Shown here: positions 57,195 to 59,376 of the stretch, in pieces
Numbering within the stretch: the first letter of the stretch is position 1
Layout of the letters: every line of letters begins with the position of its first letter
NCBI GenBank assembly: GCA_963798485.1
Contig: CAWCTR010000010.1
Location: forward strand, 32,001-96,000
Direction: 5' to 3'
Source: an uncultured delta proteobacterium
GTDB taxonomy: Bacteria; Desulfobacterota; Desulfomonilia; UBA1062
DNA length: 64,000 nt
Program-made: the position numbers and the translations under genes
Notes under the pieces: generated by a model
Database searches by the model: none
What the model was told of the DNA's origin: nothing
What the model saw: the letters and a program-made list of their open reading frames with translations, nothing else

Positions 57195-57481
57195 TGGCAC
57201 ATGTTGACATCGGATATTCTGACATCGAGAAAAATTTCGGACGAGTACCGATTGAAACAGGGCTAAACAACACAAACCAAAAACACTCTATTCATAAACA
57301 GGCTGGTGGATTTAGATTGTTATGAATGCACATGGCCTGATGAATATTATCTCTGGAAATATTAGCTTGTGGTGATATTGAGTTGGTAAAAAACTGAAGA
57401 TAACGTGATAATCATCTAAAAGGCACCTCCGCCAACATCGCACGGCTATAATACAAGTACTAAGTCAATAGGAGGTGTGTC

Positions 57482-58507
57482 ATGAGAGAGCTGCATGCCG
57501 GGTTGGATCTACATTCAGGGAACACTTACATCGGACTGATCGAGAAAGGGACAATGAAGCGAGTTTTCGAGAAGCGGGTAAGGAATAACCTGGACGAGGT
57601 TGTCTGGACCCTGGCCCCTTACCGTGAGGAGATCAGGGGGATAGCTGTCGAGAGCACTTTTAATTGGTATTGGTTAGTAGATGGGTTGAATGAGGCTGGA
57701 TATGACTGTGTGCATCTGGCCAATCCTGCAGCAATACAACAGTACAAAGGACTCAAGTACGCTGATGACAGGCACGATGCGTTCTGGCTGGCGCAGATGC
57801 TGTCTCTTGGGATCCTCCCCGAAGGATATATTTATCCCAAGGAAGAGCGACCGGTTCGGGACCTGCTGAGGAAGAGATCCTTCCTGGTAAAGCAAAAGAC
57901 AGCCCATATCATCTCGCTTCAGTCGATGATCGAGCGAAACACTGGCGTGCACATGAGTGCGAATGCCTTGAGGAAGGTCAAGGCAGAAGACATTCAGCAG
58001 ATACTGAAGGAAGAACACCTCGTGCTCCTTGGGACAACGAGCCTTGAGACCATAACCTTTCTCGGGAAGAACATCAGGAATATCGAGAAGACGGTCAAGA
58101 GAGAAGTGAAGATAAGAGATGCTTTTGAGAAGCTGCACATGGTTCCCGGGATCGGTGATATCCTAGCCATGACGATCATGCTGGAGGTGGGGGACATCTC
58201 ACGATTTTCATCAGTGGGTAACTTCTCTTCGTATTGCCGGTGTGTCCCTACCGGCAGGTTATCCAATGGGAAGAGCAAGGGCAAAGGCAATGTAAAGAAT
58301 GGGAACCGGTATCTGGCCTGGGCATTTATCGAGGCGGCGTATCTCTCAATGAGGCAATCCCCCAAGATCTCCGGCTACTACAAGAGGAAGGCTTCGAAGA
58401 CTCACAAGATGGTAGCGGTCAAGACCATAGCAAGTAAGCTGGCCAGGGCCTGCTATTATATCCTCAGGGATGGGGTTGAATTCAAGGAAGAGCTGCTCTT
58501 TTGCTGA
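57482..58507 (+). CDS. IS110-family DEDD transposase/bridge recombinase
   Basis: GLDLH, AVESTFNW, ADDRHDA (DEDD), VPGIG and SNGK...KNGNRYLAWAFIEAA. Confidence 0.95.
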   Translation: MRELHAGLDLHSGNTYIGLIEKGTMKRVFEKRVRNNLDEVVWTLAPYREEIRGIAVESTFNWYWLVDGLNEAGYDCVHLANPAAIQQYKGLKYADDRHDAFWLAQMLSLGILPEGYIYPKEERPVRDLLRKRSFLVKQKTAHIISLQSMIERNTGVHMSANALRKVKAEDIQQILKEEHLVLLGTTSLETITFLGKNIRNIEKTVKREVKIRDAFEKLHMVPGIGDILAMTIMLEVGDISRFSSVGNFSSYCRCVPTGRLSNGKSKGKGNVKNGNRYLAWAFIEAAYLSMRQSPKISGYYKRKASKTHKMVAVKTIASKLARACYYILRDGVEFKEELLFC

Positions 58508-58509
58508 GC

Positions 58510-58935
58510 AGGGGAAAACGGCGAGACAGTGATTCTGGTGGCTAAGAACCCTTTTCGTGGTTGCTCCGCCGTTTACCCCTCTCATATAAACAAGAATCCA
58601 GCGGGGAAGTTGCTATGATTCAGATCTGCCTTTGCCATGAGTCTGTATGGTGTGGCCGGAAGAGCCTTTTATCGTGTCACTTACAATTGAACATGACAAG
58701 GAACCGATATTTTTCTGGGACAGTAGATGCTGTCAGGGACGTACAGGTGGAGAGGGCTACTCTTCTGATTTCATCCTCTCAGTGTACAGTCTAAAGCCGG
58801 ATGGGTGCCTGGTGCGGATCATTATCCGTCACCTGAGTATCGTGAAAAATAGGGCGCAGAAAGGGAGTCATTGGAATGGTCCTAGCTGGCTGTACGTTAG
58901 ACCTGCAAAAAAAAGTGCGACGGTGAACTATGTTT
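58510..58935 (+). ncRNA. Candidate bridge/seek RNA of the IS110 element
   Basis: ~430-nt non-coding region with multiple hairpins. It contains ATGGGTG (58801), identical to the right end plus core, and ATTATC (58821) / GAGTATC (58835), complementary to the left end GATAATC. Confidence 0.65.
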
Positions 58936-59031
58936 TTGTTGACAGGGGCCTTTTAATGGGTGCCAGTATCGGCGCTCTGGTATGCTATACCTATTTGTGG
59001 AGATCATCTGTTTATACACATTTAAAATTAT

Positions 59032-59376
59032 TTATAGAGCCTTTTCGTAGATTTTCTGCCAGCGGTTATCATCGGATGTGCTAGTGATCTTAATTGCCCC
59101 TTCACCTTTTTTAAGATCTACCCAAGCAATAACTCCGTTGATTGTAATACCATCAGAGGGGATCATAAACTGGAGTGATCCGCCTATGTAATCTATGGCC
59201 TGAATTGTGGTCCTTGGTTTAAAAAGTTGAGGACACATAAGGCACATGCCATGCTGGTTGATATCTTTTGTAAAACCACGACTGTTAAACAACCTTCCTA
59301 CTTTGATCAAAAATGTGATCTTAACTTTTTTCCGCTCCTGTTTCCTTCGCTCATGAACAACATTATTAATTTCCAT
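59032..59376 (-). CDS. Stand-alone PilZ-domain c-di-GMP-binding protein
   Basis: RRKQER (RxxxR), DINQHG (D/NxxxxG) and GVIAW. Confidence 0.85.
   Translation of the reverse strand: MEINNVVHERRKQERKKVKITFLIKVGRLFNSRGFTKDINQHGMCLMCPQLFKPRTTIQAIDYIGGSLQFMIPSDGITINGVIAWVDLKKGEGAIKITSTSDDNRWQKIYEKAL

Follow-up and report, generated by a model that had tools for sequence, protein, structure and literature searches.

Candidate target-binding loops and a donor guide in the 3' non-coding region of an IS110-family element with IS1111 organisation

Described RNA-guided elements and the element in the window

Within the IS110 family, IS1111 elements are told apart by subterminal inverted repeats and a longer 3' non-coding region (PMC11187229; PMC11208160), and their guide, the seekRNA, lies in this region with a top-strand target match placed 5' of a bottom-strand match (PMC11187229). 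The described members ISEc11, ISPa11, ISKpn4 and ISPst6 (Siddiquee et al. 2024, PMC11187229) combine these features with a DEDD recombinase of 330–350 amino acids, a promoter formed only in the circle, and two target matches that overlap at the insertion point. Here, we describe an element that resembles them in these respects, with a predicted circle promoter, located in the window, which is the whole stretch of 64,000 nucleotides (nt) analysed from an uncultured delta proteobacterium. It is an IS110-family element with IS1111 organisation, whose 3' region appears to hold two target-binding loops, D1 and D2, and a donor module, D3. As far as PMC11187229 describes them, IS1111 seekRNAs have one pair of target matches, whereas the 455-nt region of the window element has two and that of some relatives three. 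Reported IS1111 RNAs measure 82–96 nt in their short form and 148–172 nt in their long form (review PMC13604230).

The element also shares features with the bridge RNA of IS621 (Durrant et al. 2024, PMC11208160; Hiraizumi et al. 2024, PMC11208158), namely helix-closed loops whose sides pair with opposite strands around a dinucleotide core, which is CT in IS621 and TG here (PMC11208160). The 5' guide is 8–9 nt long in IS621 and up to 9 nt in the clade of the window element, and the 3' guide 4–7 nt and 5 + 2 nt, respectively (PMC11208160). Two bases beside the 3' guides of IS621 pair with the other DNA after strand exchange and thereby promote it (PMC11208158), and the window element likewise has two bases adjoining a 3' guide that match the other DNA partner (putative handshake bases). 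Since the RNA of IS621 is encoded at the opposite end of the element, strand roles are mirrored (PMC11208160); read in the opposite orientation, the long 5' and short 3' guides with their handshake bases would fit the IS621 scheme. The window element differs from IS621 in having its donor bases in a multiloop, where the donor-binding bases of IS1111 elements have been located (PMC11208160), a single identifiable donor guide and an extra target loop. For CazIS110-1, an RNA consisting of the target loop only is reported to occur beside the full bridge RNA and to cooperate with it (Sun et al. 2025 preprint, 10.1101/2025.10.25.684509), and excision is reported to use the same guides in other combinations (half-match recombination, 10.64898/2026.08.31.748434; IS621 excision structures, PMC13626964).

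We consider it probable that the stretch 57408–58962 is a recently active IS110-family copy with IS1111 organisation and with guides arranged in D1, D2 and D3 (Table 1). The source genome holds five full copies, namely the window copy, one with 99.6% identity to it and three with 87%. All five start with ATAATCATC after N-TG and finish with TTTTAATGGG-TG, then CCA, so the ends proposed in an earlier note, made from the letters of this stretch, are common to every copy. The left flanks follow (A/T)GAT(A/C)(A/T)(C/T)G and the right ones CCA; TG at both junctions, together with the conserved GAT..CG and CCA of the five copies, indicates site-specific insertion with a short shared core.

The two 99.6%-identical copies occupy separate sites and have intact reading frames, which argues against the element being an inactive relic. 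That it is one, or that it is targeted through protein–DNA contacts alone, seems to us barely credible. The idea of a relic draws on the 3' fragments of the element that are also present in the genome, and on the contigs of four metagenome DNA runs, in which no circle junction and no empty site could be recognised; these contigs leave the window at 57391 and 58965, just beyond the element ends, and neither form is visible in them because they show loose ends without a joint. Targeting by protein alone would leave the covariation between guides and flanks described below unexplained.

The recombinase gene encodes a protein with the domains PF01548 (DEDD_Tnp_IS110, E = 1.7e-08) and PF02371 (Transposase_20, E = 3.5e-16), which matches the NCBIfam model NF033542 ('IS110 family RNA-guided transposase') with 183.6 bits for a cutoff of 140. 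Residues D9, E57, D96 and S261 are kept in at least 95% of 80 aligned relatives, and D99, also present in the window protein, gives a D-x-x-D spacing; D9/E57/D96/D99/S261 probably correspond to D11/E60/D102/D105/S241 of IS621. The nearest solved structures, both weak matches, are the transposases of ISCro4 (E = 1.3e-06) and IS621 (E = 7.3e-06). Identity to IS110-family transposases of E. coli plasmids is below 30%; one such plasmid element (L120) has a 13-base-pair (bp) inverted repeat and a non-coding region of ~270 nt.

With the left non-coding part measuring 74 nt and the part downstream of the gene 455 nt (clade median 457.5 nt, range 260–806), and with an 8-bp pair of subterminal inverted repeats within the 7–17 bp typical of IS1111 elements, the organisation is that of the IS1111 group. 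The C-terminal motif of the window protein is V-P-TGRL-S-N-G, compared with GL-P----S(T)G in IS1111. Whereas IS1111 transposases are described with S/T-G, the window serine is followed by N, and the listed variants among the 80 relatives have S (T in one), then N or D. Because of this S-N/D motif, membership of the IS1111 group is likely but not settled. The domains, the subterminal repeats and the guide–flank covariation nevertheless all favour the RNA-guided, IS1111-style element of the IS110 family that the earlier note had recognised.

Two further observations concern the protein. Residues 194–273 (protein of 57482–58504) match the TIGR-Tas RNA-guided endonuclease model NF052498 below its cutoff (E = 1.4e-05, 25.2 versus 100 bits). 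In L040, L046 and L049, three of the relatives, the recombinase frame is ~40 codons longer and overlaps D1, so that guide loop and gene end share sequence.

Covariation of the target-binding loops with insertion sites

Species-representative genomes contain at least 570 related stretches, of which the best 80 (49–68% protein identity) were retrieved, the majority from metagenome bins of Desulfobacterota, Nitrospirota and others. The left and right ends of these relatives are nearly identical to those of the window element. The 60 non-coding regions with a placeable right end were aligned (MAFFT), and mutual information was calculated between each well-occupied alignment column and 12 flank positions per side; guide–flank agreement was assessed with 10,000 shuffles per test. 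The highest value was obtained for 58808 and the first right-flank base (1.30 bits, identical letter in 92%), followed by 58557 and 58674 with the last left-flank base (1.25 bits, 87% identical, and 1.17 bits, 85% identical, respectively). Further diagonals were found at 58553–58556 and 58673, and positions 58538 and 58536 show complementarity to the first and the third right-flank base in 75% and 84% of sequences, respectively. From these peaks it follows that the left flank and TG are copied in the same sense at 58553–58559 and 58670–58676, that an antisense copy of the right flank ends at 58538, and that a same-sense copy of the right junction occupies 58801–58809. At the DNA level, the candidate loops of the 3' region covary with target and donor. 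The comparison of guide loops with insertion sites that the earlier note had suggested thus yields covariation across ~50 homologues.

D1 sits immediately 3' of the stop codon. Its outer helix comprises 8 pairs, each formed in 40–45 of 45 sequences, and several of them occur with three or more pair types. The 5' guide, TGATTCTGG, is the strongest guide of the element, and the earlier note had not mentioned it. Compared with the right flank of the respective relative, the 9-mer matches at 9 of 9 positions in L068 and L070, at 8 plus the core G in L036, and at 9 with one wobble in L015. Unbroken pairing from the first flank base averages 5.20 as against 2.49 in shuffled pairs (49 distinct pairs), and the 3' guide matches 4.23 of 5 left-flank bases as against 2.61 (39 pairs); no shuffle out of 10,000 reached either value. 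Given that the 3' strand (TTTCG-TG) copies left flank and core, it would pair with the bottom strand. The top-strand match stands 5' of the bottom-strand match in D1 and in D2.

The same correspondence is seen within the source genome, in which the flanks agree with the D1 5' guide of their own subfamily at 8, 8 and 8, 7, 8 of 9 positions, and with that of the other subfamily at 4, 4 and 6, 5, 4. For the window copy, the right target half agrees with its own subfamily's guide at 8 of 9 positions and with the other's at 4 of 9. Flanks of the CCAAACGTC type are those expected for the D1 5' guide of the other subfamily.

The two bases after the D1 core are AT in most relatives, identical to the first two bases of the left end, and GT in the window copy, which would still pair by wobble. 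The conserved TGATTG that follows the D1 core was considered as a left-end guide and rejected, since it is unchanged in a group with a different left end.

D2 is a paralogue of D1, a relationship still visible in the relatives; one group reads GGGGT-TGG...CC-A.AAGAT.-TG in both loops. Automatic alignment and folding gave a D2 outer helix of 12 pairs, 9 of them with compensatory changes. The pairing run of the 5' guide is 3.28 as against 1.93 in shuffled pairs (46 pairs), and the 3' guide matches 3.91 of 5 bases as against 2.66 (35 pairs, two mis-parsed loci dropped), with 0 of 10,000 shuffles in both cases. Moreover, five relatives whose non-coding regions are long (L020, L044, L053, L064 and L078) carry a third module of the D1 type. 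The window element therefore departs from the IS621-type bridge RNA with its exactly one target-binding loop, as two loops covary with flanks. The suspicion of more than one target-binding module was well founded, and two of the partial target matches noticed earlier, TTTCGTG (58553) and TTATCGTG (58669), turn out to be the left-flank guides of the two paralogous loops, both covarying with homologue flanks. The third, TCTGGGAC, belongs to the conserved TTTTCTGG and its hairpin, which stay constant among elements with different targets, and is not a guide. Two target loops are best supported by the many different states of the target, by the contrast within the genome and by compensatory changes in the helices.

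An alternative, which we judge unlikely without dismissing it, is that only D1 and the donor module guide, and that D2 is a structural or regulatory duplicate (e.g., a protein-binding scaffold or a decoy) whose likeness to the target was inherited from D1 or is kept via gene conversion. This would agree with the single pair of target matches given for IS1111 seekRNAs in PMC11187229, with a D2 5' guide of just 3 nt in the window copy, and with the right flanks of 41 distinct elements, which fit D1 better in 26 and D2 better in 6, with 9 ties. For the left flank the comparison is more even (34 elements: 17 ties, D1 better in 11, D2 in 6), and in the source genome the D2 3' guide (TTATCG) fits better than that of D1 (TTTTCG) in 4 of the 5 copies. 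Against a mere duplicate also speak the compensatory changes in 9 of the 12 D2 helix pairs, the 3' guides of D1 and D2, which are identical in only 4 of 41 elements, and L043, L062 and L085, in each of which one guide of D2 agrees with the flank more closely than the corresponding guide of D1. Finally, the groups all have the D2-specific features in common, yet their D2 guides change along with the target from one group to the next, and must hence have changed after the duplication.

We therefore prefer to take D2 as a second working target loop, an interpretation drawn from these sequence comparisons. Since a target-loop-only RNA has been reported to cooperate with a bridge RNA in another IS110 element, D2 and D3 may together form a bispecific bridge RNA, with D1 acting as a separate, stronger seeker. 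We propose tentatively, and with somewhat less than even confidence, that a large IS1111-style clade spread over many phyla hard-wires two, and sometimes three, independently evolving target loops, with D1 as seeker and D2 plus D3 as bridge.

Regarding the D2 strand after the core, it often reads (TG)ATAA(A) in L028, L056, L078, L035 and many elements with ACCCC targets, resembling the start of the left end over 4–6 nt and not 2; in the window copy it continues with TCAC, unlike the left-end start.

Donor module, core dinucleotide and junction promoter

D3 contains GATGGGTG or a one-letter variant of it in 58 of the 60 non-coding regions, and it copies the last five bases of the right end, the core and the first two bases of the right flank. 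These last two equal the start of the actual right flank at both positions in 47 cases, at one in 8 and at none in 3, and their permutation gave 1.84 of 2 as against 1.28 in shuffled pairs (55 pairs; 0 of 10,000). Three CT/CC rows of this count look like a one-base slip of the regular expression, the loci reading ATGGGTG then cc; the counts were left as they are. The D3 motif pairs with the donor bottom strand in 96–100% of 53 elements. The one clear covariation on the donor side comes from the Nitrospirota group, in which the right end is ATGGA-TG and the internal motif ATGGATG. The motif stands between the variable hairpin (~58739–58793) and the hairpin 58814–58829, in agreement with the multiloop position of IS1111 donor bases in PMC11208160; a helix of 58711–58718 with ~58857–58864 is predicted to close this multiloop in single-sequence folds only.

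Could the internal ATGGG-TG-CC be a fossil right-end junction, left by a tandem duplication of the end, instead of a guide? Such duplications do occur: in L017, L021, L029, L035, L062, L076, L081 and L088 the last 14–55 bp of the right end are tandemly repeated, with ATGGGTG present twice. A fossil, however, would not keep pace with changes of target, and agreement between the present flank and the two bases behind the motif is seen in five states (AC, CC, TC, GC and TA, the last from a second element fragment on L062). The motif is also found at a fixed place between two hairpins in nearly all regions, and the right-end change to ATGGA is mirrored internally, so that we regard a fossil as very improbable.

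D1 would then spell left flank, core and left end, and D3 right end, core and right flank, i.e., the two product junctions. By analogy with IS621, the pairs after the core in D1 (AT/GT) and D3 (CC) may be handshake bases that pair with the recombined product.

A guide for the left donor end was not found as a conserved pairing in 53 elements. Mutual information with donor positions gave no clean signal for one, and the 6-mers that pair with either donor strand in at least 60% of these elements belong to the ATGGGTG and TGATTG blocks, apart from a few marginal matches. Of the guides suggested for both donor halves, the right-end one (ATGGGTG, 58801) is thus retained and the left-hand one is not. 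GAGTATC (58835) matches the right flank (AGTATC, 58965–58970) and not a donor half, and ATTATC (58821) falls within the loop and 3' arm of the hairpin 58814–58829; both strings also differ between the source-genome subfamilies, whose donor ends are identical. A search of 57300–59100 against Rfam at E up to 10 returned a lone chance snoRNA match inside the coding region (E = 0.55, 19 bits, with a gathering threshold of 85).

The strings on which the earlier note had built are all in place: GTG at 57405–57407 and 58960–58962, ATAATC from 57408, TTGACA at 58939–58944, ATGGGTG at 58801, ATTATC at 58821, GAGTATC at 58835, TTATCGTG at 58669, TCTGGGAC at 58714 and TTTCGTG at 58553. The shared core, however, is TG and not the GTG it had read. 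TG is present at 71 of 73 left junctions, preceded by C in 30, T in 26, G in 13 and A in 4; at the 60 right ends the preceding base is G in 54 and A in 6, and the junctions have TG in 55 and CG in 5. As the base before TG varies across left junctions, the third shared base in the window is a coincidence of the target, which has G at its last left-flank position. The earlier reconstruction of the empty target is right in all but this three-base core, and the site is better written GAAGATAACG-TG-CCAGTATC on the evidence of the aligned junctions.

The five relatives with CG at the right junction are L025, L039, L040, L064 and L065. Where their left junctions were found (4), these have TG in L025, L040 and L065 and TA in L039, and L040 has CG in its D1 3' guide as well. 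Judged from the junctions, such pairs would fit a staggered exchange at a two-base core where the core of the target is mismatched.

The subterminal repeats of the two ends covary in the relatives, with seven sequence variants, each matched at 8 of 8 positions. When the ends are joined, TTGACA, 17 nt and GATAAT follow one another, the first five bases of the left end finishing the -10 hexamer. Among 44 distinct homologue end pairs, TTGACN is present in the right end of all 44, the hexamer starting at the core G is GATAAT in 35, and the spacer between them measures 17 nt (25 pairs), 15 nt (10 pairs) or 18 nt (9 pairs). Because it is conserved in every one of these pairs, the junction promoter that had been read from the joined ends is more than chance, and represents a potential promoter conserved across the clade. 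In the integrated copy, a simple promoter scan detected nothing stronger than in shuffled sequence (3 found versus a mean of 2.4).

Upstream of the -35 box, by ~25 nt, most relatives (including L011–L016) have a hairpin of an A-run and a T-run, e.g. GCAAAAAA...TTTTTTGC, which may be a terminator or insulator. The source-genome copies are without its T-rich arm (window 58904–58925; an 11-nt alignment gap).

Table 1. Position of the element, its gene, its ends and its candidate guides (window coordinates).
Feature	Position	Strand	Description
IS110-family element with IS1111 organisation	57408–58962		1555 bp, one TG counted
Left target half	57396–57405	+	GAAGATAACG; flanks of 5 copies; last five bases read by left-flank guides
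Left TG core copy	57406–57407	+	
Left end	57408–57481	+	ATAATCATC; holds 8-bp subterminal inverted repeat
Subterminal inverted repeat, 8 bp	57417–57424; 58948–58955	+	TAAAAGGC; GCCTTTTA
Recombinase gene	57482–58507	+	341 amino acids; PF01548, PF02371, NF033542
D1, first target-binding loop	58514–58576	+	Outer helix 58514–58523/58567–58576; inner hairpin 58539–58551
D1 5' guide	58530–58538	+	TGATTCTGG, 9 nt; pairs with right flank
D1 3' guide	58553–58557; 58558–58559; 58560–58561	+	TTTCG; TG; then GT; left flank and core
D2, second, paralogous target-binding loop	58630–58701	+	Outer helix 58630–58639/58692–58701; inner hairpin 58653–58666
D2 5' guide	58648–58650	+	TGG
D2 3' guide	58670–58674; 58675–58676	+	TATCG; then TG
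Conserved TTTTCTGG and hairpin Ha	58711–58738	+	Ha 58719–58724/58729–58734; structural, not guide
Variable hairpin Hb	58739–58793	+	Length and sequence differ among relatives
D3 donor guide	58801–58809	+	ATGGG+TG+CC; last five right-end bases, core, first two right-flank bases
Hairpin Hc	58814–58829	+	GCGGAT/ATCCGT; compensatory G:C to A:T change between source-genome subfamilies
Right end	58939–58960	+	-35 TTGACA 58939–58944; subterminal repeat 58948–58955; terminal ATGGG 58956–58960
Right TG core copy	58961–58962	+	
Right target half	58963–58971	+	CCAGTATCG; pairs with D1 5' guide

Target sites, proposed mechanism and significance

A number of points weigh against the guide map set out above, beside the serine motif, the circle and empty site that the contigs do not show and the left donor end for which no guide pairing was found. 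The D1 helix relies on our own alignment, and RNAalifold predicted no pairs on the automatic D1 alignment. In the window copy itself, the D1 3' guide agrees with the left flank at just 3 of 6 bases, and the 5' guide of D2 has only 3 nt. Guide windows were set by regular expressions and the MAFFT alignment, D1 being parsed in 52 and D2 in 48 of the 60 non-coding regions; the D2 parses of L078 and L080 were wrong and were removed from two counts. The shuffles ignore relatedness and so overstate significance, and most homologues come from metagenome bins, whose flanks are possibly misassembled. The flanks of L023, L066 and L021 disagree with their own guides, and the flank of L056 fits its guide only if 4 extra nt are allowed at the right end. 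It should also be noted that the guide evidence is at the DNA level; a search for RNA runs that contain the stretch returned none, and an RNA from the 3' region is presumed.

The exact empty target is absent from the source genome, in which the 16-letter target pattern with at most 3 mismatches occurs at 80 places and its reversed control at 53. Unoccupied look-alike sites (GATnnCG-TG-CCA), e.g. on source-genome contigs at C4:417988, C17:105144, C28:13998, C5:121845 and C30:132276, sit at the left edge of a dispersed repeat of ~50–60 nt, the right part of which is moderately conserved (...TGAAnATTTC...ATAATCTTnACT). Given this location, the natural target seems to be a repeat family, as in other IS1111 members.

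At C7:627402, C24:43413 and C18:56203, ATAATCATC(G/A)(A/G)AAAA..GGGGCATGG is found ~25 nt upstream of look-alike sites (GAT..CATGCCA). This sequence resembles the left end of the element and may be the remnant of a related one. Moreover, two solo right-end stubs of ~80 and 50 bp are present, L007 (C10, ~122.5 kb) and L008 (C22, ~18.5 kb), with breakpoints equivalent to window 58884 and 58915, respectively. Each is preceded by GAT(A/T)ACG-TG, which is left-flank-like, and followed by TG-CCA. They look like deletions between the left junction and right-end-like internal sites (AATGG-TC-C and AAG-TG-CGA), and may be products of mis-guided excision. The tandem right-end repeat of L017 and the L008 stub share an internal CGATGG site as their starting point.

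If it behaves like ISEc11 and IS621, the element would excise as a circle, the joined ends of which would create the promoter TTGACA-17-GATAAT. This promoter would drive the recombinase gene and the 455-nt 3' region as RNA, and the RNA, bound by the recombinase, would pick the landing site through base pairing, with recombination at the TG dinucleotide. For circle formation, transcription of the 3' region, the RNA–protein complex and strand exchange at TG, this scheme presumably follows what is described for the family. The division of labour proposed for D1 versus D2 and D3 resembles that of the loop-only RNA of CazIS110-1 (10.1101/2025.10.25.684509); the short RNA there is a truncated single loop, whereas the window element would encode a separate loop in its DNA.

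The kind of element is known, and we rate the two target loops (three in some relatives) as the new feature, subject to the scope of the literature: two target-binding loops were not found in what is searchable of it, and IS1111 RNAs with several loops may already be contained in the supplements of Durrant 2024 and Siddiquee 2024.

Work is under way to turn bridge and seeker RNAs into programmable recombination tools, and the design rules published so far derive chiefly from IS621 and a small number of IS1111 members. The clade described here provides a natural set of ~50 guide–target pairs with a fixed donor, from which the guide code can be read directly, i.e., up to 9 nt on one side and 5 nt with TG on the opposite one, with 2 nt of presumed handshake bases in either module, in a mirrored version of the IS621 handshake logic. 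Furthermore, two target loops in one transcript region make it testable whether a separate target-loop RNA helps recombination. Should D2 prove dispensable, the element would be an ordinary new member of its insertion-sequence family with an unusually well resolved guide map. If the reading with two or three loops is true, the element could read a single target twice over or two related ones, and would represent a DNA-encoded cooperation of a loop-only RNA with a bridge RNA, for which the reports to date describe a processing product only.

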